64,000 nt of DNA from Candidatus Rokuibacteriota bacterium (lineage in GTDB: Bacteria > Methylomirabilota > Methylomirabilia > Rokubacteriales > CSP1-6), in assembly GCA_005887895.1 (NCBI GenBank), contig VBPC01000173.1:3006-67005 (forward strand), read 5' to 3'. Both the position numbers and the translations under genes were made by a program. The notes beneath the pieces are model-generated. The model ran no database searches and was not told the origin of the DNA. It was given only the letters and a program-made list of their open reading frames with translations. Positions 594 through 18,746 of this stretch are shown here, one piece after another (the first letter of the stretch is position 1; every line of letters starts with the position of its first letter).

Positions 594-634
594 CGAGGGC
601 CCCTCTGCTCGATGCTAGCGTCAGGGTCCGAGTG

Positions 635-689
635 TGTCAAACGTACGGGCCTCTTTCCGCTTGACACATCGAGGCGTTGGCCCTAAAAC
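635..689. promoter_or_regulatory. Candidate divergent sigma70-like promoters between ftsH and the cydA-like gene
   Basis: The plus strand carries TTGACA (661-666), a 17-nt spacer and TAAAAC (684-689), about 95 nt upstream of the ATG at 784. The minus strand carries TTGACA (635-640 on the plus-strand scale), a 17-nt spacer and TAGCAT, facing ftsH. This is a pattern match only. Confidence 0.2.
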
Positions 690-783
690 TTGCCCGGAAC
701 GCTCATGTGATTTCGCGAACAAGCTCGTCTGCGGTGAGGGAAGTCGCACGCTCGCGGGAAGTTCGCAGTCAGAGGCCGAATCG

Positions 784-2574: not shown

Positions 2575-2575
2575 G

Positions 2576-3373
2576 ATGCACGTGCCCGTCGGCGTGAAGG
2601 TCGGCCTCTTCGCCGTCGCCGTGATGGGCAGCTACTCCTACTTCGCCAACTCGATCCCGCAGATCGAGTCCAAGCCGCCGCAAGAGCTGTCGCTGGAAGG
2701 CGGCAACGTCACGCCGGCCCAGCTCGTGAAAGCCGGCGAGGAGATCTTCCACACCAAGGGCACCTGCGAGATCTGCCACCGCATCGGCCAGCCGGGCACG
2801 CGGGCGCCCGACCTGGCCGGCGCCGGCGGGCGCGCCGCCAAGCGGAAGCCCGGCATGAGCGCCAAGGCCTACCTCATCGAGTCGCTGCTGCAGCCGCAGG
2901 CCTACGTCGTCGAGGGCTACCCGCCGATCATGCCGGCCGTGGACAAGCCGCCGATCGCGCTCAATCGCTCCGAAGTGTGGGCGCTGACCGCGTTCCTCGA
3001 GTCGCTCGGCGGCACCGTCGACGTGACGCTGAACGACATCCCGGCCAGCGTCGGCGCGGCGGCGGCCGGCGGCGGGGCGGCGGAGTTCAAGATTCCGGGC
3101 GATCCTCAGGCCGGCGCCCAGGTGTTCCAGGGCAAGGGCACCTGCATCGCGTGCCACAAGGCGGGCAAGATCGGCGCCTCGCCGGTCGGTCCCGACCTCT
3201 CGCAGATCGCCAAGATCCAGACGCCCGACTACATCATGGGGAAGATCCTGAATCCGGCCGGCATGGGCACAGTGGCCGGCTTTCCCAAGGGTGTCATGCC
3301 CCAGGACTTCGGCACGCGGCTGACCTCGAAGGAGTACGTCGATCTCGTCTCCTTCCTGCTCACCCTGAAATGA
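2576..3373 (+). CDS. Dihaem c-type cytochrome
   Basis: There are two CxxCH motifs (CEICH, CIACH), each followed by a distal Met-containing segment, and an N-terminal hydrophobic anchor. The gene begins 1 nt after the upstream stop. Confidence 0.8.
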   Translation: MHVPVGVKVGLFAVAVMGSYSYFANSIPQIESKPPQELSLEGGNVTPAQLVKAGEEIFHTKGTCEICHRIGQPGTRAPDLAGAGGRAAKRKPGMSAKAYLIESLLQPQAYVVEGYPPIMPAVDKPPIALNRSEVWALTAFLESLGGTVDVTLNDIPASVGAAAAGGGAAEFKIPGDPQAGAQVFQGKGTCIACHKAGKIGASPVGPDLSQIAKIQTPDYIMGKILNPAGMGTVAGFPKGVMPQDFGTRLTSKEYVDLVSFLLTLK

Positions 3374-3377
3374 GCCG

Positions 3378-4142
3378 ATGAGATTCCTCCGCTCGCGCTT
3401 CCTGCAGGCCGTCGCGATCTTCGTGCTGGCGTTCGTCGTCCTGCGCTTCGGGATCCGGCCGCCGGCGCCGTGGAGCGTCCTGTCGCTCTACATGTTCATC
3501 ATCACGCTGGCGCTCCTCATCTTCGTCTCATCCGATCGCGACTCGTGGCGCGACTTCGTGCGGCCGATCTGGCTGACGCTGACCGACCCGCGCTACCGCG
3601 GGCTGCGTTCGGTCATCGTCGTGCTGGTGCCGCTGCTGTTCGGCTACTACGCCTACACCCAGGCGGCGGCCAAGCCCCAGGGGCCGCCCGAGCTGCGCGC
3701 GGTGCACCCGGCGCCGCCCGCCTCGATCCAGTTCCGCGGCAAGGAGATCAACATCTCCGGTGTGGAGAACCCGCTGCGCAAGGACGCGGCGGCGTTCGGC
3801 AAGCACGTGGCGGCCGGCCACGACACCTACATCCGCAATTGCGTCTACTGCCACGGCGACAACCTCGACGGCAAGGGCCACTTCGCCTACGGCTTCAACC
3901 CGCCGCCGGCGAACTTCCAGGATCCCGGCACCATCGCGATGCTGCAGGAGGCCTACCTCTTCTGGCGAATCGCCAAGGGCGGCCCGGGGCTGCCGAAGGA
4001 ATCGACGCCGTGGAACTCGGTGATGCCGGCCTGGGAGGAGCGTCTCACGGAGGAGCAGATCTGGCAGGTGATCATGTTCCTGTACGATTTCACCGGCCAG
4101 CAGCCGCGCCGTTGGGAAGCGGGAGAGCATGCCTCCCACTAG
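3378..4142 (+). CDS. Membrane-anchored mono-haem class I cytochrome c
   Basis: Two N-terminal TM helices are followed by a single CVYCH haem-binding motif and a downstream Met region (NSVMPAW). Confidence 0.75.
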   Translation: MRFLRSRFLQAVAIFVLAFVVLRFGIRPPAPWSVLSLYMFIITLALLIFVSSDRDSWRDFVRPIWLTLTDPRYRGLRSVIVVLVPLLFGYYAYTQAAAKPQGPPELRAVHPAPPASIQFRGKEINISGVENPLRKDAAAFGKHVAAGHDTYIRNCVYCHGDNLDGKGHFAYGFNPPPANFQDPGTIAMLQEAYLFWRIAKGGPGLPKESTPWNSVMPAWEERLTEEQIWQVIMFLYDFTGQQPRRWEAGEHASH

Positions 4143-4158
4143 GTGGCGGGCGCCGATA

Positions 4159-5733
4159 ATGGCCCATCTGCGTCGTTGCCTTCTCGCTCCTCCCTGCGGC
4201 GTGGCCGGGCCACGCCGCAGTCGTCGCTCGTCGGCGCCTAGCATCTGGACCATTCTCGGCGCCCTACCTCGACCCGGGCTGGCACAGCTGATTTTCTGCG
4301 CGAGTGTTGCGGCCTCGCTGGCGCTCGCCGCGGACGTCGGTAATGCGTTCGCGCAAGCTGGGGATGCGAATGCGGGGAAGGCGGTTTACGAGAAGAAGTG
4401 TGCGGGGTGTCATGGTCAGAACGGCGACGGGAAGGGGCCGGCGGCGGAGCTGCTGGTGCCGGCGCCGCGGGATTTCACGCGGGGGTTGTACAAGATCCGG
4501 ACGACGGCGAGCAAGGCGCCGTCGGACCGGGACCTGTTCAAGATCATCACGGACGGCATGCCCGGGACCTCGATGCCGTCGTGGGCGGTTCTCCCGGACA
4601 AGGACCGCTGGAATCTCGTGGCATACCTGAAGACCCTGGCGCCGGAGGCGTTCAAGGAGGCGCCCAAGAAGCTCGAGCTGCCGAAGGAGGTCGCCTCCTC
4701 GGAGGCGTCGATCAAGCGCGGCAAGGAGATGTTCGAGGCGATCGAGTGCCACAAGTGCCACGGCACCGACGGGCGCGCCGATGGGCCGTCGCGGCCTGAG
4801 CTCAAGGACGAGTGGGGCCATCCGATCGCGCCGGCCAACCTCACCAAGCGCTGGACCTTCCGGGGCGGGCCGGGACGGACCGAGATCGCCACCCGGCTGG
4901 CCGCCGGCGTCCTCGGCACGCCGATGCCGACCTTCATCGACAGCGTCGAGAAGCCGGAGGACATCTGGCACCTCGCGAACTATCTCGCCTCGCTGGGCCC
5001 CGAGCGCCCGAGCTACGCCACCCTGATCACGGTCACCGCCGTCCGCGGCGACATCCCCGACGATCCCAACGCCGAGTTCTGGAAGAAGCTGACGCCGAGC
5101 GCCATCCCGCTGATGGGCCAAATCATCCAGGATCCGCGTAACTTCAATCCGTCGGTGGATCTCGTCGCCGTCCGAGCTGCCTACAACGAGCGGGACGTCG
5201 TGTTCCACCTGACGTGGGACGACCCCAGCGAGTCGAAGGGCGACGGCAAGCAGACGTTCGCCGACGCGATCTCGCTCCAGTTCCCGCCGCAGATCACCGC
5301 GTCGATCGAGCGGCCCTATTTCCTGATGGGCGACGCCAACGAAGGCGTGTACCTGTTGCGCTGGGAGCAAGGCAAGGGCGTCGGCGAGGCGACCGCCAAC
5401 GGGCCGACGAAGATCGCACCGATCGCGGGCGGCGAGGCGGGCGGCAAGGCGGTGTACGACCACGGCCAGTACCGGCTGGTGATGCGGCGCCCGCTGGCCG
5501 CCACCGGCGAGGCGCGGCCGACGTTCCGGCCGGTCGTGTTCACGCCGGTGGCGATCCAGGCCTGGGACGGCGGCGCCGGGGAGACCGGCACCAGGATGTC
5601 GCTGACGTCATGGTACTATCTGCGGCTGGAGGAACCGCAGTCGAACCGACGCTTCGTCATTCCTCCCGTCGTGGCAATCCTCACACTGGCAGCCATGGTC
5701 CTCGTCGTGCGCGCGGCGAATCGCGTCCGATGA
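4159..5733 (+). CDS. Dihaem cytochrome c fused to an EB_dh-like (DMSO-reductase gamma / ethylbenzene dehydrogenase gamma type) haem-b domain, with a C-terminal TM anchor
   Basis: The N-terminal half carries CAGCH and CHKCH. The C-terminal half (HLTWDDPSESKGDGKQTFADAISLQFPP...YFLMGDANEGVYLLRW...) resembles the Met/Lys-ligated haem-b EB_dh fold. A C-terminal hydrophobic helix (VIPPVVAILTLAAMVLVV) follows. The start is uncertain: ATG 4129, ATG 4159 or GTG 4201 are all possible. Confidence 0.6.
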   Translation: MAHLRRCLLAPPCGVAGPRRSRRSSAPSIWTILGALPRPGLAQLIFCASVAASLALAADVGNAFAQAGDANAGKAVYEKKCAGCHGQNGDGKGPAAELLVPAPRDFTRGLYKIRTTASKAPSDRDLFKIITDGMPGTSMPSWAVLPDKDRWNLVAYLKTLAPEAFKEAPKKLELPKEVASSEASIKRGKEMFEAIECHKCHGTDGRADGPSRPELKDEWGHPIAPANLTKRWTFRGGPGRTEIATRLAAGVLGTPMPTFIDSVEKPEDIWHLANYLASLGPERPSYATLITVTAVRGDIPDDPNAEFWKKLTPSAIPLMGQIIQDPRNFNPSVDLVAVRAAYNERDVVFHLTWDDPSESKGDGKQTFADAISLQFPPQITASIERPYFLMGDANEGVYLLRWEQGKGVGEATANGPTKIAPIAGGEAGGKAVYDHGQYRLVMRRPLAATGEARPTFRPVVFTPVAIQAWDGGAGETGTRMSLTSWYYLRLEEPQSNRRFVIPPVVAILTLAAMVLVVRAANRVR

Positions 5734-6512: not shown

Positions 6513-7176
6513 ATGCTTGACTGGTGGCTGCCTGAAAACGTCTCGACCTACGGGCGGGACATCGACTGGTTGTTCCACCTCATCTACTACATCACCGGGA
6601 TCACCGCGATCCTCGTGTTCGGGGCCATGATCATCTTCCTGGTGATGTACCGCGACCGTCCCGGTCGCCGGGCCCGCTACACCCACGGCAACACCACGCT
6701 GGAGATCGTCTGGACGATCGTGCCGGCGCTGATCCTCGTGATCCTGACGCTGCTGAGCGTCCCGGCGTGGTCGAAGATCAAGATGACCATGCCGGAGACG
6801 GACTTCATCGTGCAAGTGACCGCGAAGCAGTTCAACTGGCAAATCACCTATCCCGGCCCCGACGGCAAGTTCGGCACCGACGACGACAAGACGCTGCTCG
6901 ACGAGATGCACGTGGCAGGACGCGGTGCCGGGCCGCCAGATCGTGCAGTGGTTCGAGGCGACCAAGCCCGGCAAGTACGAGCTGCCGTGCGCCGAGCTGT
7001 GCGGCTTCGGCCACTCCGGCATGCGCGGCTGGATCTACGTGCACACGCCCGACGAGTACGCGAAGTGGGCGGCGGAGAACCTGACGGCCCAGGCGGCCGG
7101 CGGCGAGCAGAAGCAGGCGGACGAGGCCAAGCCGGCGGCGCCCGCCGCCAAGACGGGAGGAAAGGCCAAGCGATGA
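6513..7176 (+). pseudogene. coxB: Cytochrome c oxidase subunit II (CoxB) disrupted by an internal deletion of about 27 codons plus a frameshift
   Basis: Frame 0 (6513 to about 6911) encodes the two TM helices and ...VQVTAKQFNWQITYPGP...DDDKTLLDEMHV. The conserved continuation (PVG..V....TS.DViHsF.vP...vK) is absent. Frame +2 resumes at about 6917 with QDAVPGRQIVQWFEATKPGKYELPCAELCGFGHSGMRGWIYVHTPDEY, which contains the CuA ligands, and runs to the stop at 7176. Confidence 0.7.
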
Positions 7177-8927
7177 GCGCCACCACCGCGACGGCTCACG
7201 CGCACGTTGCACACGAGCATCACGAGCTGGGCTTCGTCCGGACGTACATCTTCTCGACCGATCACAAGATGATCGCCCGCCAGTTCCTGTTCCTGGGGCT
7301 GACGATGATGATCCTCGGCGGCCTGCTGGCGCTGATCGTGCGCTGGCAGCTGGCGTGGCCGGAGACGCCGATCCCCGGCATGGCGCACATCTTCACCGAG
7401 ACCTCGCCGCCCGGGATCATCCAGCCGCCGCAGTACAACATGGCGTTCACCATGCACGCCACGATCATGATCTTCTTCGTGATCATGCCCATCCTGGCCG
7501 GCGCCTTCGGCAACTTCTGCATCCCGCTCATGATCGGCGCCCGCGACATGGCCTTCCCGTTCCTGAACATGCTGTCGTTCTGGGTGACGGGCACGGCCGG
7601 GGTCATCATGCTGTCAGGCTTCTTCGTCGAGGGCGGCCACGCCGCCGCCGGCTGGACGTCCTACGCGCCGTTGTCGGCGGTGCCGGAGTACACCGGCGTC
7701 AACTGGGGCCAGAACATCTGGTGCATCAGCCTGTTCGTCATGGGCGTCGGCTCCATGATGGGCTCCATCAACTACATCACCACGATCATCAACATGCGGG
7801 CGCCCGGCATGCGCCTGTTCCGCATGCCGCTCGTCGTGTGGTCGCTGTTCATCACGGCCATCCTCCTGCTGCTGGCGCTGCCGGTGCTGACCTCCGGTGT
7901 GGCCATGCTGCTGTTCGACCGCACGCTCGGCACCTCGTGGTTCAAGCCGTCGGGCGGCGGCGAGCCGCTGCTGTGGCAGCACCTGTTCTGGTACTTCGGC
8001 CATCCCGAGGTCTACATCCTCATCCTGCCGGCCATGGGCATCGCCTCGGAGATCCTGCCGGTGTTCTCCCGCAAGCCGATCTTCGGCTACCACGCCATGG
8101 CGTTCTCGATGATCGGCATCGCGTTCCTGTCGTGGATCGTCTACGGCCACCACATGTTCGTGAGCGGGATGAACCCCCGGCTCGGCATGGCGTTCACGGT
8201 GAGCACGATGATCATCGCGGTGCCCTCGGCCATCAAGACCTTCAACTGGCTGGGCACCCTGTGGGGCGGCCGCATCCAGTTCAAGGTGCCGATGCTGTTC
8301 GCGCTCGGCTTCGTGTCGATGTTCGTGATCGGCGGGCTCAGCGGCATCTTCATGGCCAGCACCCCGGTCGACATCTACATCCAGGACACCTACTTCATCG
8401 TGGCCCACATCCACTACGTCGTGTTCGGCGGCTCGATCTTCGGCGCCTTCGCGGCGATCTACTTCTGGTTCCCGAAGATGTTCGGGCGGATGCTGAACCC
8501 GGTCCTCGGCCATCTCCACTTCTGGGGCACCCTGATCTTCTTCAACTGGGTGTTCTTCCCGATGCACATCATCGGCGTCGGTGGCCAGATGCGGCGGATC
8601 TACAACCCGATGCAGTACGAGTTCCTCCAGCACCAGCAGCACTGGAACGTGTTCATGACCTACGGCGCGCTGTGCCTGGGCGCCGTCCAGCTGCTGTTCG
8701 TGGTCAACTTCTTCTGGTCGCTGTTCGCCGGCCGCAAGGCGCCGATGAACCCGTGGAACTCCACGACCCTCGAATGGACGGCGCCCTCGCCGCCGCCGCA
8801 TCTCAACTGGGGCGCGACCGTGCCCACCGTCTACCGGGGGCCGTACGAGTACAGCGATCCCGAGGCGGCCGAGGACTTCCTGCCGCAGAACCAGCCGCCG
8901 GCCCGGGTCGGCGCGCGGGCTCACTGA
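7173..8927 (+). CDS. coxA: Cytochrome c oxidase subunit I (A-family haem-copper oxidase)
   Basis: The ATG overlaps the coxB stop (ATGA). The protein is 584 aa with 12 TM helices and the hallmark motifs [22 protein letters not shown] and HHMF...GGLSGI...HYV. The tail extends out to ...PARVGARAH. Confidence 0.92.
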   Translation: [584 protein letters not shown]

Positions 8928-8941
8928 CGGAGACGCCCGGG

Positions 8942-9820
8942 GTGAGGCTGGCGCATCGCCTGGCCGTGCTGACGGCCGCCGCGACCGGCGTGCTCATCGT
9001 CTTCGGCGGGCTCGTGACGAACACGGGCGCCGCCCTGGCGGTGCCCGACTGGCCGACGACGTTCGGCCACAACATGTTCCTGTTCCCACCCTCGCAGATG
9101 GTGGGCGGCGTGTTCTACGAGCACAGCCACCGCCTGCTCGGCGCCCTCGTGGGCGGACTGACGGTGGGGCTGGCGGCGATCCTCTGGCGGCGCGGCGGCC
9201 GCTGGCGCGCGCTCGCCGTCGCCGCCGCGCTCCTCGTCGTCCTCCAGGGCGTCGTCGGAGGGCTGCGGGTGGTGCTGCAGACGGAGGCGCTCGCCATGAT
9301 CCATGGTCCGCTGGCGCAGGCGTTCTTCGCGCTGACCGTCACCATCGCGCTGCTCACGTCGCCCCGGATGGCCGCGCCGGCGCTCACGGTGGATGCGACC
9401 ACGCGCCGGCTGACGCTGACCGCCGCGGCGACGGTGTATCTACAGATCGTGTTCGGCGCGCTCCTCACTCACGCCGGTTATCTCGGCCTCCACCTGGCCG
9501 GCGCGCTGGCCGTCTTCGTCCTGGTGCCGATCGTCACCGCGCGCCTGCGGCATGGCGGCGACCCGGTGGCCGCGCCGGCGGCCCGCGCCCTCCTGGCTCT
9601 GCTGGGGCTGCAGCTGCTGCTCGGCGTCGGCAGCTATCTGGTGCGCTTCTCGGCGATCTGGATCCCGGGCGGACAGCTCACGATGCTGGCGGCGCCCGTC
9701 GCGCATCGGCTGGCCGCCGGCCTCGTCCTCGCGGCCGTCGTGGTGCTGGCCGTCCGCGTGCTGGCCTCCGCGCGGCCGGCGGTGCTCGACGTTCCCGGCG
9801 TGCTCGGAGTCGTGTCATGA
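8942..9820 (+). CDS. ctaA: Haem A synthase (CtaA/COX15 family, short type-2 form)
   Basis: The GTG start is in frame with the stop at 9820. The protein has eight TM helices, the motifs DWPTTFGHNMF and YEHSHRLLG, and His in downstream helices. Confidence 0.7.
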   Translation: MRLAHRLAVLTAAATGVLIVFGGLVTNTGAALAVPDWPTTFGHNMFLFPPSQMVGGVFYEHSHRLLGALVGGLTVGLAAILWRRGGRWRALAVAAALLVVLQGVVGGLRVVLQTEALAMIHGPLAQAFFALTVTIALLTSPRMAAPALTVDATTRRLTLTAAATVYLQIVFGALLTHAGYLGLHLAGALAVFVLVPIVTARLRHGGDPVAAPAARALLALLGLQLLLGVGSYLVRFSAIWIPGGQLTMLAAPVAHRLAAGLVLAAVVVLAVRVLASARPAVLDVPGVLGVVS

Positions 9821-9938
9821 AGCCCCGCGCGTCTGGAACAGGCCACCTGCGGTTCACGCCGGCCGCGCGGACCCCGCTACGATTGAAGCCCCGCGCGCCT
9901 GGAACAGGCCACCTGCGGTTCACGCCGGCCGCGCGGAC
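9818..9938 (+). repeat. Tandem direct duplication (2 x 55 nt with one mismatch, 11-nt spacer) that exactly fills the ctaA-ctaB intergenic region
   Basis: Copy 1 at 9818-9872 is tgaagccccgcgcgTctggaacaggccacctgcggttcacgccggccgcgcggac. The spacer is cccgctacgat. Copy 2 at 9884-9938 is identical except for a single T-to-C change. Copy 1 starts at the ctaA stop codon and copy 2 ends at the ctaB ATG. Each unit contains the inverted pair ccgcgcg / cgcgcgg. Confidence 0.85.
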
Positions 9939-10841
9939 ATGACGCCGCGGGGCGAGGTCGTCGTGGCGGCGCTTGCGCGCGAGCGCGGACGCGTGGCCGG
10001 CGACCTCCTGTCGCTGACGAAGCCGCGCGTCGTCCTGATGGTGCTCGTGACGACGGTGGTCGGCTACTACGTCGGTCTGGCCGGCGCGCCCGACTACGCG
10101 CGCCTGGCGGCGCTCCTGCTCGGCACGATGCTGGCGGCCGGCGGCACGCTGGCGCTGAACCAGTACTGGGAGCGTGACGTCGACGCCCTCATGGAGCGCA
10201 CGCGCACGCGCCCGCTGCCCGAGGGACGGCTGGCCCCGCTGGAGGCGCTGCTGTTCGGCGGGGGGCTCACGGCGGCGGGGCTCGGCGTGCTGGCCCTCGG
10301 CGTCGGCTGGCTGGCCGCGCTGGTGGTGGCGGCCACGTTCGTGCTCTACATCTTCGCGTACACGCCGCTCAAGGTGCGGACGCCGTTCTGCACGCTGGTC
10401 GGCGCCGTGCCGGGTGCGCTGCCGCCGGTGGCCGGCTGGGCCGCCGCGCGCGACGACGTCGGGGTGGGCGCCTGGGTGCTGTTCGGCATCCTGTTCCTCT
10501 GGCAACTGCCCCACACGCTGGCCATCGGGCGTCTCTACCGTGACGACTATGCCCGGGCCGGCGTGCGGCTGCTGCCGGTGATCGACGCCCAGGGGCGGGC
10601 CACCGAGCGACAGATCCTCAGCGGCTGCCTGGGGCTGCTGGCGGTGAGCCTGCTGCCCACGCTGATCGGCCTGGCCGGCGGCGTCTACTTCGCGGGCGCC
10701 CTCGTCCTCGGCGCCGGGTTCGTCACGCTCGGCGCCCAGCAGGCGCTGGCGCCGTCGGCGTCGCGCGTGCGACGCGTGCTGCTGGCCTCGCTGCTCTACC
10801 TGCCGGCGCTGCTGGCGCTGCTGGCCTTCGACAAAGCATGA
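9939..10841 (+). CDS. ctaB: Protohaem IX farnesyltransferase (haem O synthase)
   Basis: The protein is 301 aa and belongs to the UbiA family, with motifs LTKPRVV, NQYWERDVDALMERTRTRPLP and LFLWQLPHTLAIG. Confidence 0.85.
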   Translation: MTPRGEVVVAALARERGRVAGDLLSLTKPRVVLMVLVTTVVGYYVGLAGAPDYARLAALLLGTMLAAGGTLALNQYWERDVDALMERTRTRPLPEGRLAPLEALLFGGGLTAAGLGVLALGVGWLAALVVAATFVLYIFAYTPLKVRTPFCTLVGAVPGALPPVAGWAAARDDVGVGAWVLFGILFLWQLPHTLAIGRLYRDDYARAGVRLLPVIDAQGRATERQILSGCLGLLAVSLLPTLIGLAGGVYFAGALVLGAGFVTLGAQQALAPSASRVRRVLLASLLYLPALLALLAFDKA

Positions 10842-10966
10842 GCATGAGCGCCGTCATGACCGACCCCGGCGACCTCGGCCAGCGCAACCGGCTCGTCCGC
10901 CGCATCCTGCTCGGCATCGTCGCCGTGCTGATCGTCGCCTCGTTCATGGTGGGGATTCGCTGGTGA
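10838..10966 (+). CDS. Small single-TM protein (42 aa) wedged between ctaB and cox3
   Basis: Its ATG overlaps the ctaB stop (ATGA). The sequence is MSMSAVMTDPGDLGQRNRLVRRILLGIVAVLIVASFMVGIRW. It is in the same frame as, and directly upstream of, the next gene, and is below the ORF-track size cut-off. Its coding status is unproven. Confidence 0.3.
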   Translation: MSMSAVMTDPGDLGQRNRLVRRILLGIVAVLIVASFMVGIRW

Positions 10967-11038
10967 CCGCCGCCGACGCCGCCCACCGGCGGCGGCGACG
11001 ACGACCGCAACGGCTCGTGGGGCCGGCCGCTCGACAAC

Positions 11039-11575
11039 GTGCGGCTGGCGATGATGTTCCTGATCGCGGGCGAGGTGATGTTCTTCGCCGCCCTCGTCTC
11101 CGGCTTCTTCGTCCTGCGGCTGGCGGCGCCGCTGTGGCCGCCGCCGCTGCAGCCGCGGCTGCCCGTGTTCGTGACCGGGCTCAACACGCTCGTCTTGCTC
11201 GGCTCGAGCATCGCCATGCTCGGCGCGACGCGCGCCGTGGGGCGCGGGGAGCGGTCGCGGGCGCTGCGCCGCCTGGCCCTCACGGCCGCGCTCGGCATCC
11301 TGTTCCTCGCCGTGCAGGGCTACGAATGGACGCGGCTGATCGAGTACGGCCTCACCACCTCGTCCGGCGCCTACGGCGGCACGTTCTACACACTGATCGG
11401 CGCGCACGCCGCCCACGTGCTGGGCGCGCTGATCTGGCTGGCCGTCACCCTGACGCTGGCCGCCCGCGGGCGTTTCCTCGACGGCCGCACCGCCGTGCTG
11501 CGAGCGTGCGCGATCTACTGGCACTTCGTCGTGGCCCTGTGGCCGGTTCTCTACGTGACGGTCTACCTGATATGA
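11039..11575 (+). CDS. Cytochrome c oxidase subunit III family protein (short, copy 1)
   Basis: A GTG start gives a 178-aa protein with motifs YEWTRLIEYGL, GTFYTLIGAHAAHVLGALIWL and YWHFVVALWPVLY. Confidence 0.7.
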   Translation: MRLAMMFLIAGEVMFFAALVSGFFVLRLAAPLWPPPLQPRLPVFVTGLNTLVLLGSSIAMLGATRAVGRGERSRALRRLALTAALGILFLAVQGYEWTRLIEYGLTTSSGAYGGTFYTLIGAHAAHVLGALIWLAVTLTLAARGRFLDGRTAVLRACAIYWHFVVALWPVLYVTVYLI

Positions 11576-11787
11576 CGCACGCGTTCGGACGAGTCCTGGC
11601 CTGTGCTTCCTGCATGTCGACCGCGTACGGCGACCAGTCGTTCACCTGGGCGTACGGCGCGCTCATCGTGGCTCCCTTCCTGGTCGCCATCGCGCTCGGC
11701 GCCGTGCTCGCCTGGAGCGCGGGGTATCGGCTGCGGTGGTGCCGCGTGACGCCGATGGCGACGCCGATCAACGAGGAGGTTTCATGA
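11572..11787 (+). CDS. Small membrane protein with an N-terminal CxxC motif (71 aa)
   Basis: The ATG overlaps the cox3 stop and the stop overlaps the next ATG (ATGA at both ends). The sequence MTHAFGRVLACASCMSTAYGDQSF... contains a hydrophobic helix (ALIVAPFLVAIALGAVLAW). Confidence 0.4.
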   Translation: MTHAFGRVLACASCMSTAYGDQSFTWAYGALIVAPFLVAIALGAVLAWSAGYRLRWCRVTPMATPINEEVS

Positions 11788-12398
11788 GTGCTGCAACCCC
11801 GCACGCAGCGGTGGAGCGCGCCGAGACCCCGCTCACGCCGGAGAGCTGGGGCAAGCTCGGGATGTGGATCTTCCTGGCCGGCGACGCCGTCGGCTTCGGC
11901 ACGCTGCTGGCGTCCTACGGCGGCATGCGCGCGACCAGCGCCGACTGGCCGAATCCCTACGCGGTGCTCGGCATCAACCTGACCGCCGCCATGACGTTCC
12001 TGCTGATCTGCTCGAGCGTCACGATGGTGAAGGCGCTCGAGTGGCTGGGCCGCGGCGACCGAGCCAAGGCCAAGATGTTCCTGTTCTTCACCGCGCTGGG
12101 CGGGGCCATCTTCGTCGGCTGCCAGGCCTATGAATGGACGCACCTGATCGAGCGTGGCCTGCACATCAACGGCAATCCCTGGGGGGCCGCGCTGTTCGGC
12201 ACCTCGTTCTTCATCGTCACCGGCTTCCACGGCCTCCACGTGACGGGCGGCGTCATCTACCTGCTGGCGATGATCGGCGTCGTGTCCCGCCGGCCCGATC
12301 CGGCGGCCAGCTACAACGCGGTCGAGATCGCCGGCCTCTACTGGCACTTCGTCGACCTCGTGTGGATCATGGTGTTCACCTTCATGTACCTCCTCTAA
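11784..12398 (+). CDS. Cytochrome c oxidase subunit III (copy 2)
   Basis: The protein is 205 aa with motifs AYEWTHLIERGL, FFIVTGFHGLHVTGGVIYL and YWHFVDLVWIMVF. Confidence 0.85.
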   Translation: MSAATPHAAVERAETPLTPESWGKLGMWIFLAGDAVGFGTLLASYGGMRATSADWPNPYAVLGINLTAAMTFLLICSSVTMVKALEWLGRGDRAKAKMFLFFTALGGAIFVGCQAYEWTHLIERGLHINGNPWGAALFGTSFFIVTGFHGLHVTGGVIYLLAMIGVVSRRPDPAASYNAVEIAGLYWHFVDLVWIMVFTFMYLL

Positions 12399-12411
12399 GG
12401 AGGCGAGATCG

Positions 12412-12750
12412 ATGGCAGCCGAGCACAAGCATCCCAACTACATGGCGATCTTCTACCTGCTGGCGGTGCTGACGGTCGGCGAGATCGCCGTCGTGTTCCT
12501 GCCGCACTACATCGGGATCAGCAAGTTCGCCGTCGGCGTGTTCCTGTGCGCCTTCGCGATCGTCAAGGCGGCGCTGGTCGCCATGTACTTCATGCACCTG
12601 AAGTTCGAGGCGCGCACGCTGGGCCTCATCGCCCTCACGCCGCTGACGATCGCCACGCTGCTGGTGTTCGTCATCCTTCCCGACGCTTCGTTCGTGGATC
12701 ACAAGACGGCGAACGTCAAGCCGGCGGCCGAAGAGCCGGCCAAGCACTGA
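12412..12750 (+). CDS. Prokaryotic cytochrome c oxidase subunit IV (caa3-type CoxD/CtaF family)
   Basis: The sequence HKHPNYMAIFYLLAVLTVGEIAVVFLP...AIVKAALVAMYFMHLKFE is the signature of the small three-helix subunit IV family. Confidence 0.75.
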   Translation: MAAEHKHPNYMAIFYLLAVLTVGEIAVVFLPHYIGISKFAVGVFLCAFAIVKAALVAMYFMHLKFEARTLGLIALTPLTIATLLVFVILPDASFVDHKTANVKPAAEEPAKH

Positions 12751-13176: not shown

Positions 13177-13926
13177 GTGCTGAGAATCGTGGCGATGGTC
13201 GTGCTCGCGATGGCGCTGGCGACGCCGGCGCCGGCCTACGAGGTCGTCACCGTGCCCGACGGCGGCACCCTGGCCGGCGTGGTGAGGTTCGCCGGCCCAC
13301 CGCCGAAGCTCGACCCGCTGCCGGTGAACAAGAACCGCGACGTGTGCGGCGACGAGAAGGCCACGGAGGCGCTCATCGTCGGGCCCGACCACGGCGTGCG
13401 TGGCAGCGTCATCCTCGTGGAGGGCGTCACCCGCGGCAAGGCGCCGGCCGGGGAGGTCCTGCTCGACAACCACAAGTGCCTGTTCGTCTCCCACGTCAGC
13501 GCGACGACGACGGGCGAGCGCGCGCGGGTGAAGAACTCCGACGGCATCCTGCACAACACGCACGGCTTCCTGGCCCGGACGACGGTCTTCAACCTCGCGC
13601 TGCCGAACCGCGACCAGATGATCGACATCACCCGGCGGCTCGGCAAGCCGGGGGTGGTGCGCGTCGTGTGCGACGCGCACACCCACATGTTCGGCTGGAT
13701 CGTCGTGCACGACAGCCCCTACTTCGCCGTGAGCGACGACCACGGCGCGTTCCGCATCGAGGGCATCCCGCCCGGCAGCTACAAGGTCACGCTCTGGCAC
13801 GAGGGCTACCGGCCCCGCGGCCTCGACAAGGACGGGCGCGCGCTGTACGACGAGCCCCGCACCATCACCCGCGACGTCACGATCGCGCCGACGGCGACGG
13901 CGACGGTCGACTTCGAGCTCAAATAG
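13177..13926 (+). CDS. Periplasmic cupredoxin-like (type-1 copper) protein, paralogue of 5790-6479
   Basis: A signal peptide is followed by VKNSDGILHNTHGF and VVCDAHTHMFGW (C-x2-H-x2-M). The C-terminal beta-sandwich (FRIEGIPPGSYKVTLWHE...VDFELK) has the same architecture and conserved blocks as the upstream paralogue. Confidence 0.6.
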   Translation: MLRIVAMVVLAMALATPAPAYEVVTVPDGGTLAGVVRFAGPPPKLDPLPVNKNRDVCGDEKATEALIVGPDHGVRGSVILVEGVTRGKAPAGEVLLDNHKCLFVSHVSATTTGERARVKNSDGILHNTHGFLARTTVFNLALPNRDQMIDITRRLGKPGVVRVVCDAHTHMFGWIVVHDSPYFAVSDDHGAFRIEGIPPGSYKVTLWHEGYRPRGLDKDGRALYDEPRTITRDVTIAPTATATVDFELK

Positions 13927-13935: not shown

Positions 13936-15846
13936 ATGTACAAGCACATCTACGTTCCGGTCGACAACTCGGACTACTCGAACCGGGCCATCGACCTGGC
14001 CGTCGAGCTGGGCCGTGCATTCGGCGCACGGCTCACGGGTTGTCACGTGTACGCCGCCCGGCTGCACGACTACCGGTTCAAGCAGATGGAGTACACGCTG
14101 CCGGAGGAGTACAAGGACGAGACGGAGCTCGAGCGCCAGCGCAAGATCCACGACTCGCTGATCGCCATGGGCCTGCAGCTGATCTCGGAGTCCTACCTCG
14201 ATGTCCTGAAGGCCCGGGCGGAGGCGGCCGGCCTCGCCTTCACGCCGAAGATGATGGACGGCAAGCACTACAAGGCGCTCATCGAGGACTGCGCGAGCGC
14301 CGACTACGACCTGGTCATCATGGGCGCCCTCGGCATGGGCGCCGTCAAGGACAGCCAGCTCGGCTCCGTGACCGAGCGCTTCGTCCGTCGAGTCACGCGC
14401 GACACGCTGGTCGTGCGCAATGCCGACGCCCTCCGCGACGCCCAGGGCGCGATCGTCGTCGGCCTCGACGGCTCCCCGCAGTCGTTCCACGGGCTCAAGC
14501 TCGGCCTGGCGCTGTCGCGGGCGCTCGGCCGGCCGGTGCGGGCCATCGCCGTGTACGATCCGTACCTCCATTACGCCATGTTCAACGGCATCGTGGGCGT
14601 CCTGAACGAGAAGGCGTCGAAGATCTTCCGGTTCAAGGAGCAGGAGCAGCTGCACGAGGAGATCATCGATACCGGATTGGCCAAGATCTACCAGTCGCAC
14701 CTCGAGATCGCTCGCAAGCTGGCCGCCGAGGACGGCGTCGACCTCGACATCACGCTGCTCGACGGCAAGTGCTTCGAGAAGATTCTGACCTTCGCCCGCA
14801 AGGAGCAGCCGTGGTTGCTCGTGCTGGGCCGGGTCGGCGTGCACTCCGAGGAGAACGAGACCGATCTCGGCTCCAACACCGACAATCTCCTGCGGCTGGC
14901 GCCCTGCAACGTCCTGCTCACCGGCGGGCGGTTCTATCCGCCGCTGGACGTCAAGGCCGAGGAGATCATCTCGTGGACCGAGGAGGCCGAGGCGCGCATG
15001 GAGCGGGTGCCGCCCCAGGTCAAGGGCGTGGCCCGCACCGCCCTGCTGCGCTACGCGATCGAGCAGGGCCATACGGTCATCACCAACAAGGTCATCGACG
15101 AGGCGATGGCCATCTTCATGCCGACCCGCATGGCGGAGACGATGCAGATCATGGCGGAGGACCTCGCGGTGGCCCAGCTGCGCAAGGACGGCCAGGCGGC
15201 GACGGCGATCTGCTCGGTGTGCGGCTACACCGTCAAGGGACCGAGCGCGGTGGTGACGTGCCCGGTGTGCTCGGCGGCCCCCGACAAGTTCCAGACGATC
15301 ACCCGGGAGGTCGTGGAGACGATCGCGGCCCAGGAAGGCGGCGTCGCCGAGGAAGAGTCGATGCCCGGCGTCGTCACCAAGTGGTCGGCCGACGCCCGCG
15401 ACGCCCTGCGCGAGGTGACCGACGGCTACCTGCGCCGGCGCGCCAAGGCCCGCATCGAGAAGTACGCGCGCTCGAAGAAGATCCCGGTCATCACCTGCCA
15501 GCTCGCGCTGCCGATGATCGAGGAGACGGTCGGCCGCGACAAGCTCGGGGCCGGCTGGGACACGCTCCTCGCCAAGACCCGGTTCGAGCCGGCCGCGGCG
15601 CCGGCGGCGGCGGCCGTGGCGCCGGCGACGAGCGCGTTCACGTGGACCGAGGACGCCGTCGCCCGGCTCAACCGGGTGCCGGCGGGGTTCATGCGGGACA
15701 TGACGCGCGAGGAAATCGAGCGCGTCGCTGCGACGAAGAACGCCACGCTCATCGATCTCGCCCTGTGCGAAGAGGGTATCGGGCACGCCCGCGAGACGAT
15801 GAACGAGGTCATCGCGGGATACGTCTCGAACAAGAAGCCGCGCTGA
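13936..15846 (+). CDS. Multi-domain protein: tandem universal-stress-protein (UspA) domains, a PCP_red domain, a CxxC...CxxC zinc ribbon, and a second PCP_red domain
   Basis: The two USP modules begin YKHIYVPVDNSDYSNRAIDLAVEL and AIVVGLDGSPQSFHGLKLGLALS. The zinc ribbon is CSVCGYTVKGPSAVVTCPVC. The two PCP_red domains (WTEEAEARMERVPPQVKGVARTALLRYAIEQGHTVIT and WTEDAVARLNRVPAGFMRDMTREEIERVAATKNATLI) match the BchB C-terminal domain motif W.peAe..L..iP.FvR......E.fA...G...it. Confidence 0.65.
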   Translation: MYKHIYVPVDNSDYSNRAIDLAVELGRAFGARLTGCHVYAARLHDYRFKQMEYTLPEEYKDETELERQRKIHDSLIAMGLQLISESYLDVLKARAEAAGLAFTPKMMDGKHYKALIEDCASADYDLVIMGALGMGAVKDSQLGSVTERFVRRVTRDTLVVRNADALRDAQGAIVVGLDGSPQSFHGLKLGLALSRALGRPVRAIAVYDPYLHYAMFNGIVGVLNEKASKIFRFKEQEQLHEEIIDTGLAKIYQSHLEIARKLAAEDGVDLDITLLDGKCFEKILTFARKEQPWLLVLGRVGVHSEENETDLGSNTDNLLRLAPCNVLLTGGRFYPPLDVKAEEIISWTEEAEARMERVPPQVKGVARTALLRYAIEQGHTVITNKVIDEAMAIFMPTRMAETMQIMAEDLAVAQLRKDGQAATAICSVCGYTVKGPSAVVTCPVCSAAPDKFQTITREVVETIAAQEGGVAEEESMPGVVTKWSADARDALREVTDGYLRRRAKARIEKYARSKKIPVITCQLALPMIEETVGRDKLGAGWDTLLAKTRFEPAAAPAAAAVAPATSAFTWTEDAVARLNRVPAGFMRDMTREEIERVAATKNATLIDLALCEEGIGHARETMNEVIAGYVSNKKPR

Positions 15847-15854
15847 GCGATGAC

Positions 15855-16002
15855 GGTTCGTGGGCGGCGGCGGGGGCGGGGTCCGGCGACCACGAGGTAG
15901 GCGGCGATGGTTGGGATGCGTGATTCCCTCGTGCCGGGTGGCTCCGTAAGCGGTTGCGGGAAACGGGTCGGCGGACCCCGCCCCCGCCGCCGCCCACGAA
16001 CC
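15855..16002. repeat. 36-nt inverted repeat (35/36 match) with a 76-nt spacer, forming a large potential stem-loop between the USP/PCP_red gene and the radical-SAM gene
   Basis: Arm 1 at 15855-15890 is ggttcgtgggcggcggcgggggcggggtccggcgac. Arm 2 at 15967-16002 is gtcggcggaccccgcccccgccgccgcccacgaacc, the reverse complement with one G/C mismatch. The loop contains a nested cacgagg / cctcgtg inverted pair. Confidence 0.85.
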
Positions 16003-16037: not shown

Positions 16038-17465
16038 GTGAGCTCGCCGGCCTCGCCTCAGGCGTCGCCGCCGGCGGCGATGTACACGGCGTATTCGGTG
16101 TCGTGGAACCTCACGCAGCGGTGCAATTTGGAGTGTGCGCATTGTTATATGTCGGCGCACGCGGGGGCCGACTCGCGGGGTGAGCTTTCGACCGACGAGT
16201 GCCGGCGCGTGATCGATGAGATTGCGCGGGTCAATCCGAACGTGTTCTTGATCCTGACCGGCGGGGAGCCGTTGCTGCGCCGGGACATCTTCGACGTCGC
16301 GGGGTACGCGTCGGGCAAGGGGTTCACGACCGTGCTCGGGACCAACGGCGTGCTGCTGCGCGAGCCGCAGGCACGGCTGATGCGCGAGCGCGGGGTGCTC
16401 GGGGCGTCCATCAGCCTCGATTCCACCGAGCGCGTGAAGCACGATGCCTTCCGGCGGCTGCCGGGGGCGTGGGACGGCGCGGTGCGGGCGACGCGCGTGC
16501 TGACCGACGCCGGCCTCGACTTCTCGCTGCACATGTCGGTGACGGACTGGAACGTGGGCGAGGTGCCGGCGATGATCGACCTCGCGAGGGAGCTGGGCGC
16601 CAAGGTGCTCAACTTCTTCTTCCTGGTGCGGACGGGCCGCGGCCGTCGGCTGACCGACATCGATCCCGACGCCTACGAACGGATCCTCACCTATCTGGCG
16701 AAGGTCCAGGGCGCCGGCGAGGGTCCGCCGGGCTTCGTGCGCCGGATGCTCGGCCTCGACCGCCGTGCCGGGGGGCCACGACACGGCCCTCCCGACGCCG
16801 CTGCAACTCCGTTCGAGGATCCGTGGTCGACGCCGGTGGGGCGCGCCGACGGGCTGCTGATCCGCGCGAAGTGCGCGCCGCACTTCCGGCGGATCCTGTG
16901 GGAGCTCAATCCGGCCTCGCCGCTGCTGCGCAACTACGCGCACGGCTCGTGCCCGGCCGGCAAGTACTACTGCCGCATCACGCCGGAGGGCGATGTGACG
17001 CCGTGCCCCTACATGCCCGTCGCCGCCGGGAACGTGAGATCGACGGCGTTCGACGAATTGTGGCGGACGGCGTCGGTCTTCGGGGACCTGCGCGAGTCGA
17101 AGCTGGGCGGCCGCTGCGGCGCCTGCGAGTTCTCCCGCGTGTGCGGCGGCTGCCGCTGCCGGGCCTACGCGGCCTCCGGCGACTACCTCGCCGAGGATCC
17201 GGCGTGCGGCTATCAGCCGGGGGCTCACGGCGGCGTCGTGATCGAGCTGCCGGCCACGCTCACCTTCGGGCTGCCCGTCGATTACGAGCTCGCCTGGGAG
17301 TCGGAGGCGCGCGAGCGCCTCGCCGCGATCCCCTCCTTCGCGCGCGGCATGGTCGTGAAAGCCGTCGAGGCGTACGCCCGCGGCCGCGGCGACCGCGTCG
17401 TCACGCGCGAGCTGCTCGCGCAGGTGCGCGGCTCGTGGGGCGGCCGATTCCGTCCGCAGGCGTGA
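16038..17465 (+). CDS. Radical SAM enzyme with SPASM auxiliary-cluster domain (NirJ/AhbD/PqqE-like) plus a C-terminal PCP_red-like domain
   Basis: A GGAAGGA ribosome-binding site lies 5 nt before the GTG at 16038; an alternative ATG is at 16080. The radical-SAM motif is CNLECAHC (CxxxCxxC), followed by the GGEPLL and GTNGVLL blocks. The SPASM cysteines are CPAGKYYCRITPEGDVTPCPYM...CGACEFSRVCGGCRCRAYAASGDYLAEDPACGY. The tail (LAWESEARERLAAIPSFARGMVVKAVEAYARGRGDRVVTREL) is a PCP_red motif. Confidence 0.75.
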   Translation: MSSPASPQASPPAAMYTAYSVSWNLTQRCNLECAHCYMSAHAGADSRGELSTDECRRVIDEIARVNPNVFLILTGGEPLLRRDIFDVAGYASGKGFTTVLGTNGVLLREPQARLMRERGVLGASISLDSTERVKHDAFRRLPGAWDGAVRATRVLTDAGLDFSLHMSVTDWNVGEVPAMIDLARELGAKVLNFFFLVRTGRGRRLTDIDPDAYERILTYLAKVQGAGEGPPGFVRRMLGLDRRAGGPRHGPPDAAATPFEDPWSTPVGRADGLLIRAKCAPHFRRILWELNPASPLLRNYAHGSCPAGKYYCRITPEGDVTPCPYMPVAAGNVRSTAFDELWRTASVFGDLRESKLGGRCGACEFSRVCGGCRCRAYAASGDYLAEDPACGYQPGAHGGVVIELPATLTFGLPVDYELAWESEARERLAAIPSFARGMVVKAVEAYARGRGDRVVTRELLAQVRGSWGGRFRPQA

Positions 17466-17884
17466 GCGCCGACGATGGCAGGTTTCGCGCGGCCGCCCGC
17501 GGCTACCTCGTGTACGGCGTCGTCTACTGGATCGGCGGCGCCTGGCTCTGGCTGCACGACGTCGGCCGGGGCTCGGCGGCCAGCGTCGGCTGGATCCTCC
17601 TCGGCGCCGTGCTCGTCGTCCTGGTGCCGTACCTGTTGCGCCGCCGCCGGCGCGCGTTCGAGCGCTACGTGCTCAGCCGGCGCGACTTCGCCCGCATCGT
17701 CGCGCTGTTGCTGGCCGTGCGCGTCCTGGCGGTCGCCCGCGTCGTGTTCCGCGCGGGTAGCGCGACGGTGGCGGCGCCGTGGGGCGGCGTCGTGAGCTAC
17801 CGTGTCGGCGGGGCCGTGTTCATCGTCGTCACGCTGACGGCGCTGGCCCTCGTGGCGCGGGCCGCCTGGGCCCGGGAGCCATGA
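17462..17884 (+). CDS. Hypothetical membrane protein (about 140 aa, 3-4 TM helices)
   Basis: The GTG overlaps the upstream stop (GTGA). Hydrophobic helices include YLVYGVVYWIGGAWLWL and WILLGAVLVVLVPYLL. It lies in the operon between the radical-SAM and Mrp genes. Confidence 0.45.
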   Translation: MSADDGRFRAAARGYLVYGVVYWIGGAWLWLHDVGRGSAASVGWILLGAVLVVLVPYLLRRRRRAFERYVLSRRDFARIVALLLAVRVLAVARVVFRAGSATVAAPWGGVVSYRVGGAVFIVVTLTALALVARAAWAREP

Positions 17885-17885
17885 G

Positions 17886-18746
17886 GTGAAGCGCTATCGG
17901 GACATCGCGGGCGACGGCGGCTCGGACATCGTCGGCCAGGTCGAGGCGCAACAGCAGCGTCTGGCCGCGCGCCTGCGCGACGTGCACGCCATCGTCGCGG
18001 TCGTGTCCGGCAAGGGCGGGGTCGGGAAGTCGTCGGTGACGGCGAACCTCGCCGGCGCCTTCGCCCGGACCGGCGCGCGCGTGGGCGTCCTCGACGCCGA
18101 CCTCAACGGTCCCAGCATGGCGACGATGCTCGGCGTCCGCGGGCGCACGCTGGTGGTGGGCGCGGCCGGCGTCGAGCCGCCGCTCGGCGCGCTCGGCATC
18201 CGCGTGATGTCGATGGACCTGCTGCTGGCCGACGATGCCACCCCGCTGACGTGGCAGGCGCCCACCCAGGCCGAGGCGTACACGTGGCGCGGCGCCATGG
18301 AGGCCAACGCGCTCCGGGAGTTCCTGGCCGACACGGCGTGGGGGGCGCTCGACGTGCTCTTCATCGACCTGCCGCCCGGGAGCGATCGTCTCGCCACGGT
18401 CGTCGGCCTGTTGCCCGCCCTGGCCGGTACCGTCGTCGTGACGATTCCCTCCGACGTCTCCCGCCTCGTCGTCCGCAAGTCGATCACCGTGGCCCAGGGC
18501 CTGAAGGCGCCCGTGCTGGGCGTGATCGACAACATGGCGGGAATGTTCCCCGGTCCCGGCGGCGAGGCACTGGCGCGCGAGGCGGGCGTGCCGTTCCTCG
18601 GATCGGTGCCGTTCGACCCCGCGCTGGCCGAGGCGGCCGACCGCGGGGAGCCGTACGTGGCGGTCGCGCCCGCCGCGCCCGCCGCGCGTGCCTTCACGGC
18701 CATCGCCGCCCGCCTCGGCCAGGCGCTCCTCGGCCCGCGCTCGTGA
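17886..18746 (+). CDS. Mrp/NBP35/ApbC-family P-loop ATPase (Fe-S cluster carrier)
   Basis: The deviant Walker A motif is VVSGKGGVGKSSVTANLA, with LDADLNGPS, DLPPGSD and IDNMAG blocks. The GTG start overlaps the upstream stop. Confidence 0.8.
   Translation: MKRYRDIAGDGGSDIVGQVEAQQQRLAARLRDVHAIVAVVSGKGGVGKSSVTANLAGAFARTGARVGVLDADLNGPSMATMLGVRGRTLVVGAAGVEPPLGALGIRVMSMDLLLADDATPLTWQAPTQAEAYTWRGAMEANALREFLADTAWGALDVLFIDLPPGSDRLATVVGLLPALAGTVVVTIPSDVSRLVVRKSITVAQGLKAPVLGVIDNMAGMFPGPGGEALAREAGVPFLGSVPFDPALAEAADRGEPYVAVAPAAPAARAFTAIAARLGQALLGPRS

Follow-up and report, generated by a model that had tools for sequence, protein, structure and literature searches.

Oxygen-independent heme synthesis is only partly understood. 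The radical-SAM enzyme AhbD (TIGR04545; described from Methanosarcina barkeri and Desulfovibrio vulgaris) is also found in users of the coproporphyrin pathway in which the remaining Ahb enzymes are missing, where it is a proposed O2-independent coproheme decarboxylase (PMC13564367), so that in many bacteria it has been put forward, but not shown, as a substitute for ChdC. The AhbD reaction requires an electron acceptor, not yet identified (PMC10114771). The other described system that is relevant here is dark-operative protochlorophyllide oxidoreductase (DPOR), in which the PCP_red domain (PF08369) maps by sequence to residues 472–521 of the 525 residues of subunit BchB. A C-terminal helix of BchB, possibly that of the PCP_red segment, is reported to cover the protochlorophyllide substrate cavity (PMC4071322). 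The gene analyzed here is located at positions 13936–15846 (+ strand) of a stretch of 64,000 nucleotides from Candidatus Rokuibacteriota (contig VBPC01000173.1, positions 3,006 to 67,005; hereafter, the window) and encodes two universal stress protein (USP) domains followed by PCP_red repeats (hereafter, the USP-PCP_red protein); the next gene encodes an AhbD-like radical-SAM enzyme that also carries PCP_red.

The reading favored here, with about even confidence, is that the USP-PCP_red protein binds nucleotide and, without catalytic activity of its own, acts as partner of a radical-SAM tetrapyrrole propionate decarboxylase of the AhbD family, within a module for O2-independent terminal heme synthesis or handling that is located beside heme-consuming respiratory enzymes. 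This reading is based on the domain architecture, the gene pairing, the AhbD/NirJ2 identity of the partner enzyme, the adjacency of HemY, and the oxidase-cluster context, and is further supported by the recurrence of PCP_red within these loci, where it is found in the enzyme and the USP protein as well as in small zinc-ribbon or membrane-anchored proteins.

Domain architecture and fold of the USP-PCP_red protein

The gene at 13936–15846 is an uninterrupted open reading frame (ORF) of 636 codons that is accepted as genuine; a GGAGAGG ribosome-binding site is located 6–7 nucleotides 5' of the start, the G+C content of third codon positions is 0.95, matching the genuine genes of this window of approximately 70% G+C, and the product is an exact match to the NCBI entry TMQ21238.1, “universal stress protein UspA”, from a Candidatus Rokuibacteriota metagenome-assembled genome. 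Pfam searches with the whole protein and with separate segments, along with our own hidden Markov model (HMM) of PCP_red, delineate the following features of this gene and its partner:

13936..15846 (+): USP-PCP_red protein, 636 amino acids; ORF, Pfam, exact database match TMQ21238.1
13936..14418 (+): USP domain 1, residues 1–161; Pfam E 2e-23 (segment scan)
14449..14934 (+): USP domain 2, residues ~172–333; Pfam E 2e-15 (segment scan), alignments
14968..15108 (+): PCP_red repeat 1, residues 345–391 (Pfam 346–389); E 1.6e-11, 44.5 bits; own HMM
15205..15294 (+): rubredoxin-like knuckle, C426-x2-C429-x12-C442-x2-C445 (Pfam 427–454); RUBY_RBDX E 3.8e-10
15376..15519 (+): PCP_red repeat 2, residues 481–528 (Pfam 483–522); E 2.7e-07, 30.9 bits; own HMM
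15637..15780 (+): PCP_red repeat 3, residues 568–615 (Pfam 570–612); E 1.7e-10, 41.2 bits; own HMM
16080..17465 (+): AhbD-like radical-SAM/SPASM enzyme with a C-terminal PCP_red (nucleotides 17295–17429); Pfam, NCBIfam, cysteine map

The domain order thus is USP-USP-PCP_red-rubredoxin knuckle-PCP_red-PCP_red. An earlier note on this DNA, made from the sequence alone, had described the same succession of modules, which is borne out, with two copies of PCP_red, where Pfam finds three. It had also stated that the next gene, encoding a radical-SAM enzyme, carries PCP_red, and this is indeed the case (E 1.3e-12), giving four PCP_red domains across two neighboring genes, three on the USP protein and one on the enzyme. 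In the whole-protein search, Usp is detected with E 5e-39 in two stretches, PCP_red with E 4.4e-26 in three stretches, and RUBY_RBDX with E 1.6e-08. PCP_red scores 91.1 bits against a gathering score of 32.5, so that the motif resemblance is not due to chance; the two Usp domains score 83.8 and 57.8 bits, and the knuckle, with its CxxC...CxxC spacing, scores 39.5 bits against 26.5. The second PCP_red repeat, when scanned alone, falls slightly below the gathering score (30.9 bits vs 32.5) and is one of the three whole-protein stretches. Among family members with at least one PCP_red, nearly all have the first repeat.

The first USP domain contains a putative ATP-binding motif, G130-x2-G133-x9-G143-S144, the glycines of which are invariant in 48 diverse homologues, whereas the motif of the second domain is a variant with a 10-residue spacer (G298-x2-G301-x10-G312-S); judging from these motifs, the USP tandem probably binds nucleotide. 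The second USP domain also holds a strongly conserved insert, YDPYLHY...FRFKEQEQLHEEIIDTGL, identified in the alignments. The four cysteines of the knuckle (C426, C429, C442, and C445) are invariant among homologues with the same architecture.

An AlphaFold model of the whole protein (mean predicted local distance difference test score, pLDDT, 80.8) was compared with solved structures using Foldseek. The N-terminal half matches tandem USPs, namely ATP-bound TTHA0350 from Thermus (3ab8_B, TM-score to target 0.85) and Rv2623 from Mycobacterium (3cis), with E 6e-16 to 3ab8 and 3cis. These proteins and UspE from Escherichia coli share with the N-terminal 335 residues the two-domain alpha/beta fold and, in USP domain 1, the G-2x-G-9x-G-S motif. 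Unlike these tandem USPs, the USP-PCP_red protein carries a PCP_red/rubredoxin tail of 300 residues, and each of its two USP domains contains long helical inserts that are highly conserved; it is tied to one enzyme family rather than to general stress.

The model of residues 336–636 (pLDDT 81.9) matches the stand-alone PCP_red structure 2kru with a root-mean-square deviation of 0.9 Å over 50 columns and the ChlB C-terminus in 2ynm_D with 1.2 Å over 47 columns, and also matches 2l09 and the rubredoxin domains of rubrerythrins. The repeats belong to the same Pfam family and fold as the PCP_red of BchB/ChlB, 2kru, and 2l09, with the shared motif W-T-x-E-A...R-V-P-x-F-V-R...E..A. The difference from BchB/ChlB is that the nitrogenase-like Oxidored_nitro body is missing (this domain was found neither in the USP-PCP_red protein nor in its neighbors) and that PCP_red occurs here in several copies and in fusion with USP, radical-SAM, zinc-ribbon, or membrane modules. 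Membership in the DPOR subunit BchB/ChlB was rejected given a TIGR01278 score of 54.6 bits vs the cutoff of 490.35, with only profile positions 458–509 matching. The knuckle resembles the C-terminal rubredoxin-like domain (PF21349) of rubrerythrin and nigerythrin in its C-x2-C-x12-C-x2-C spacing, profile match, and structure; in contrast to these proteins, the USP-PCP_red protein lacks the diiron four-helix bundle, and its knuckle is located between PCP_red repeats and is present in some lineages only. Membership in the rubrerythrin family was likewise rejected, as only the C-terminal 50–66 residues of the rubrerythrin/nigerythrin models match (20–21 bits vs cutoffs of 200–340).

Pairing with an AhbD-like radical-SAM enzyme and possible links to heme synthesis

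Gene neighborhoods were surveyed with our own HMMs over 167 loci, which include, besides Rokubacteria, a second clade drawn from metagenomes; relatives of its Gallionella-like members carry the names Gallionella, Thiothrix, and Nitrosomonadales. A radical-SAM gene is located within 3 kb of the USP-PCP_red gene in 62 of the 64 Rokubacteria loci, in all 60 second-clade loci, and in 4 of the 6 loci from miscellaneous lineages; pooled, these are 126 of 130 informative loci, spanning at least 6 lineages, with Poribacteria, Methylomirabilis, and Planctomycetota (0 of 6 loci) left out. The same holds for most of the distant relatives (40–43% identity) that were inspected on their own contigs. A Radical_SAM+SPASM+PCP_red gene directly adjoins the USP-PCP_red gene in L081 and L082, where the two overlap (10001/10008 and 11608/11611, respectively), in L083/L084, and in L086 from Bipolaricaulia; in L085 and L087, the enzyme is not nearby. 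The suggestion of the earlier note that this protein is a dedicated partner of the radical-SAM enzyme is therefore strongly supported by gene-neighborhood statistics, the very check that it had proposed, and PCP_red is present on both proteins.

The two genes often overlap, and among Rokubacteria, the spacer between them ranges from a few to several hundred nucleotides. In the window, the spacer (15847–16079) is 233 nucleotides long and G+C-rich; the probable start of the radical-SAM gene is the ATG at 16080, and an in-frame TTG upstream of it would add a proline-rich extension to the protein. A search for Rfam families, promoters, and terminators around the two genes, including the spacer, yielded nothing above chance.

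The pairing bears on the possibility that the protein is a hypoxia or stress regulator, in which a nucleotide-sensing USP controls the neighboring respiratory complexes or their expression and PCP_red is a mere interaction tag without direct tetrapyrrole chemistry. The tandem USP fold with its conserved ATP motif is compatible with such a role, USPs encoded beside respiratory clusters are among the most induced proteins of Nitrospira marina at low O2 (PMC8115632), and the USP-PCP_red gene occurs without the enzyme nearby in Methylomirabilis, Planctomycetota, and some other loci. However, a near-obligate adjacency to a single PCP_red-bearing enzyme family (122 of 124 loci in two clades) is unexpected for a general regulator, and the presence of 1–6 PCP_red repeats and of extra small PCP_red proteins points to a structural or handling role, so that a regulatory function appears, on balance, rather doubtful.

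The partner enzyme in the window consists of Radical_SAM, SPASM, and PCP_red domains and contains the motif C15-x3-C19-x2-C22 and 10 further cysteines, in agreement with the cysteine complement of AhbD. A search of NCBIfam reveals similarity to TIGR04545 (AhbD, 307.8 bits) and TIGR04055 (NirJ2, 302.2 bits), in both cases with the match split into two stretches by a lineage-specific insertion. For five orthologues from other lineages, the match to these two profiles covers the full profile length, with 275–332 bits. In all six enzymes, which come from different phyla, one of the two yields the best score, and AhbD (275–321 bits in the five orthologues) is the best or second-best match every time. 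The CxxxCxxC motif and the auxiliary-cluster cysteines of SPASM are shared with AhbD and NirJ2. Unlike AhbD, whose 339-position model lacks such domains, the partner enzymes bear one to three extra C-terminal PCP_red domains, and unlike AhbD and NirJ2, they have a USP-PCP_red gene as partner; genes for AhbA, AhbB, or AhbC are absent from the vicinity of the pair. Across the loci, the enzymes carry either one or three PCP_red domains, and the repeat number varies on both partners; for instance, a Gallionella-type locus (L098, 12132–14219) encodes an AhbD-like enzyme of 695 amino acids with three PCP_red and a USP protein with five. By all these sequence features, the partner enzymes are a distinct AhbD-like subfamily that is marked by the PCP_red tail and the USP-PCP_red neighbor.

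SPASM enzymes are often peptide maturases, and several small PCP_red proteins flank the enzyme, which might suggest a system akin to those for ribosomally synthesized and post-translationally modified peptides (RiPPs) in which PCP_red-containing proteins themselves are modified. In this case, however, the peptide-maturase SPASM models score far below AhbD and NirJ2 for the window enzyme and its orthologues alike, and the reading was rejected on these scores; moreover, the proteins with PCP_red are conserved, of considerable length, and folded (2kru-like), the enzyme itself bears PCP_red, and no leader/core peptide pattern is seen, making a RiPP-like system extremely improbable.

A possible link to heme synthesis comes from the gene downstream of the enzyme. 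In L083, this gene encodes a member of the protoporphyrinogen/coproporphyrinogen oxidase family (TIGR00562, 247 bits vs the cutoff of 97.85), and the order USP-PCP_red, radical-SAM-PCP_red, HemY is found in 32 of 40 second-clade loci, with a HemY-family gene in the same position in both L083 and L084. In Rokubacteria, no HemY-family gene follows the enzyme (0 of 38 loci); the adjacent genes are CtaB, CtaA-like, and COX genes. In L128 (15021–19005), and similarly in L088, L099, and L101, the genes directly downstream of HemY encode a sensor histidine kinase with a PAS domain and a sigma-54 response regulator; these are possible cluster regulators in the Gallionellaceae-type loci.

The same data bear on the alternative that the pair, rather than making heme, receives it in finished form and inserts it into membrane oxidases (bd-like, aa3, cbb3, or Nar-like). 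HemW provides a precedent for radical-SAM-like heme chaperones, the pair is consistently located near heme proteins (bd-like CydA, EB_dh and DOMON heme domains, COX, cbb3), and membrane-anchored PCP_red proteins exist, e.g., in L083. A role in insertion is nevertheless improbable given that the enzyme retains the full set of CxxxCxxC and SPASM cysteines, that catalytic AhbD is its closest relative, and that the adjacency of HemY (32 of 40 loci) points to biosynthesis.

Under the heme-synthesis reading, the enzyme would perform decarboxylation without O2, converting either coproheme to heme b or coproporphyrinogen to protoporphyrinogen. The USP-PCP_red protein and the enzyme would bind each other, or one tetrapyrrole, via their common PCP_red domains, and the shared domain is the likely physical link between the two proteins, whether by docking or through a common tetrapyrrole. 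Through the USP tandem, decarboxylation would become coupled, under hypoxia, to the nucleotide or energy status, the putative Fe(Cys)4 knuckle, where present, might relay the electron that AhbD-type reactions have to discard, and an Mrp ATPase encoded nearby would load the [4Fe-4S] clusters of the enzyme. The pair probably helps to make or deliver heme when oxygen is scarce. As a partner protein that is conserved in several phyla beside an AhbD-like enzyme, the USP-PCP_red protein is a testable candidate for the missing helper or electron-acceptor component of AhbD, and this locus offers a first functional context for PF08369 outside protochlorophyllide reductase.

A more specific version, which we regard as tentative and on the doubtful side, casts PCP_red as a tetrapyrrole-handling or docking module that brings the AhbD-like enzyme and HemY together with the USP hub and with zinc-ribbon and membrane adaptors in a dedicated heme-synthesis complex. 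The USP-PCP_red protein would then be an ATP-gated scaffold or shuttle moving coproheme or heme between the enzyme and the oxidases of the membrane, the OR-N bd-like ones in particular. If correct, terminal heme biosynthesis would have a further, new component in iron-oxidizing bacteria and in the abundant bacteria of soil.

Several observations weigh against a role in heme synthesis. The equivalog cutoff of TIGR04545 is not reached (308 vs 500 bits), the orthologues also fall below it, and because of these scores the substrate of the enzyme could differ from that of AhbD. The USP-PCP_red loci of Methylomirabilis and Planctomycetota have no radical-SAM enzyme within 10 kb, and in Poribacteria, the enzyme is encoded 5–8 kb downstream. 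Ferrochelatase and ChdC are not among the recurrent families in a Pfam census of 104 other neighbors, and no further heme-biosynthesis gene is present elsewhere in the 64-kb window. Finally, even DPOR offers no settled role for PCP_red on which the proposal could build.

Distribution and annotation of the USP-PCP_red family

In an exhaustive search (E<1e-30), the family comprises at least 353 clusters, counted as representatives at 50% identity, and more than 592 species-level genomes encode a relative, mostly in Rokubacteria/Methylomirabilota. Other relatives in species genomes come from Methylomirabilis (60% identity), Planctomycetota (58%), and Poribacteria (54–56%), with further members from Bipolaricaulia and Chloroflexota, and a large clade includes Gallionella, Gallionellales, Sideroxyarcus, Nitrosomonadales, and Thiothrix. 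Close homologues with the same architecture (85–100% identity) are very numerous in soil metagenomes. The USP-PCP_red architecture is thus widespread, not rare, and the view of the earlier note that PCP_red is rare outside nitrogenase-like systems does not hold for a domain with this many occurrences in one family.

The representatives share the tandem USP, which is followed by 0–6 copies of PCP_red, as counted with an HMM built from the repeats. The CxxC...CxxC knuckle is found in only a subset of them and is absent throughout the Gallionellaceae-type clade. Because the knuckle is lineage-specific, the function of a redox sensor that the earlier note had considered cannot be general for the family.

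The names assigned by the sources to members of this family are always variants of “universal stress protein”, and no functional annotation of the architecture was found among the named members. Searches of the literature and of solved structures (PCP_red/PF08369; USP with radical SAM and oxidase; bd-like oxidase with radical SAM) also returned no description of the family. The earlier note had described the combination of domains as one not known from any characterized protein, and no paper or solved structure to the contrary was found; a wide distribution coupled with an already known function would have spoken against the novelty of the architecture, and the former is observed but the latter is not. 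The family is mis-annotated and would define a variant of the AhbD-type heme synthase system; thousands of “universal stress protein” database entries are flagged as something more specific.

A Rosetta-stone search among the long members, some of which may be frameshifted assemblies, identified a single informative fusion, P0180, in which a PNPOx_N-like domain precedes USP-USP-PCP_red. PNPOx_N is a split-barrel, FMN- or heme-binding fold. In L081 (11242–11901), a 219-amino acid protein with a faint match to PNPOx_N, 47% identical to the N-terminal domain of P0180, is encoded directly after the USP-PCP_red gene.

Respiratory and accessory neighbors

In Rokubacteria, the pair belongs to a conserved array in the order cytochromes c, COX2-COX1, CtaA-like, CtaB, two COX3, COX4, DUF983, CarboxypepD_reg-like, USP-PCP_red, radical-SAM-PCP_red, Mrp. 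The corresponding features of the window are:

634..5733 (+): OR-N-type cytochrome bd-like (CydA-like) protein and three cytochromes c (EB_dh heme domain on the last); Pfam, neighborhoods
6513..12750 (+): heme-copper oxidase cluster with COX2-COX1 fusion, CtaA-like, CtaB heme O synthase, two COX3, and COX4; Pfam, synteny
13177..13926 (+): secreted protein with a cupredoxin-like motif and CarboxypepD_reg (VVCDAHTHM); Pfam, motifs, census
17480..17884 (+): small predicted membrane protein with ~3 transmembrane helices, start codon uncertain; hydropathy, no Pfam family match
17886..18746 (+): Mrp/ApbC-type Fe-S cluster carrier ATPase; Pfam ParA/NUBPL 218.7 bits, NCBIfam MrpORP and ApbC below cutoffs

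The CydA-like protein (634–2574, 646 amino acids, approximately 12–14 predicted transmembrane helices) is encoded 11.4 kb upstream of the USP-PCP_red gene. The bd-like/cytochrome c module recurs near the pair in Gallionellaceae-type bacteria, Bipolaricaulia, and most lineages, with a CydA-like gene within 10 kb in 19 of 27 second-clade loci and 5 of 6 miscellaneous loci. The CydA-like proteins conform to the OR-N family of Murali et al., which is biochemically uncharacterized and for which no radical-SAM or USP neighbor is mentioned (bioRxiv 10.1101/2021.01.16.426971). If the pair functions as proposed, heme supply would be tied to the OR-N bd-like oxidases of microaerophiles, i.e., soil-abundant Rokubacteria and iron-oxidizing Gallionellaceae.

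The association could also mean that the pair is a maturase for a modified heme or a new cofactor of the OR-N oxidases, with the AhbD-like enzyme performing other side-chain chemistry and the USP-PCP_red protein acting as scaffold. The position of all orthologues below the AhbD cutoff, marking a distinct subfamily, the bd-like gene within 10 kb in most non-Rokubacteria lineages and at the greater distance given above in the window, and the lack of biochemical characterization of OR-N (bioRxiv 10.1101/2021.01.16.426971) are compatible with this possibility. It is quite unlikely, however, because no bd-like gene accompanies the pair in the flanks retrieved for the L148–L167 group and L071, the oxidase nearest to it in Rokubacteria is of the aa3 type with CtaA and CtaB, and the adjacency of HemY fits ordinary heme synthesis.

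Within the heme-copper oxidase cluster, the 804-amino acid ORF at 6513–8927 is an apparent fusion of subunit II (transmembrane domain) and subunit I. The CtaA/COX15-like gene (8930–9820) was assigned by an EHSHR-type motif only and has no NCBIfam match; together with CtaB, it accompanies an oxidase of the aa3 type. In other lineages, the neighbors of the pair include cbb3 oxidase, an arsenite-oxidase-like enzyme, a Nar/EBDH-like molybdoenzyme, and bc-type complexes. The gene immediately upstream of the USP-PCP_red gene has a paralog at 5733–6476. Both products are secreted or anchored, have a C-terminal CarboxypepD_reg domain, and contain a cupredoxin-like H...C...H..M pattern (e.g., HKCLFVSH, LHNTH, and VVCDAHTHM), and these paralogs may be copper electron carriers for the oxidases. 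In other phyla, too, many loci have a CarboxypepD_reg homologue directly upstream of the USP-PCP_red gene.

The Mrp gene is located within 6 kb in 58 of 59 Rokubacteria loci and 1 of 27 second-clade loci, and also accompanies the pair in Methylomirabilis, Poribacteria, and Bipolaricaulia; the ATPase may supply the radical-SAM enzyme with clusters. Adjoining the Mrp or radical-SAM gene, several loci encode small accessory proteins that end in PCP_red, namely L078 (16799–17326), L086 (8317–8709), L083 (2056–2613), and L085 (9164–9808, − strand). One of these proteins has an N-terminal zinc ribbon (MKFLCxEC...CxxC), one, found in L083, has a four-helix membrane domain, and one has two PCP_red copies. 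The protein combining the zinc ribbon with PCP_red shows 38% identity between Poribacteria and Bipolaricaulia. An apparent fusion of Mrp with PCP_red in L077 was rejected as a case of overlapping six-frame ORFs, with Pfam identifying Mrp followed by a separate small PCP_red gene.

Among the 104 unlabelled neighbors, HEAT/PBS-lyase-like repeat proteins of about 800 amino acids were found five times, and the UbiE and Peptidase_U32 families twice each; Peptidase_U32 includes the UbiU/UbiV O2-independent ubiquinone hydroxylases. Other genes of the window are unrelated, e.g., those for a PAC2-family protein (20642–21523), squalene/phytoene synthase (22763–23833), and a fused ATP sulfurylase/APS kinase (47461–49167), as well as for DUF1800/DUF3106 proteins, peptide and branched-chain amino-acid ABC transport, and an M81/MlrC peptidase.

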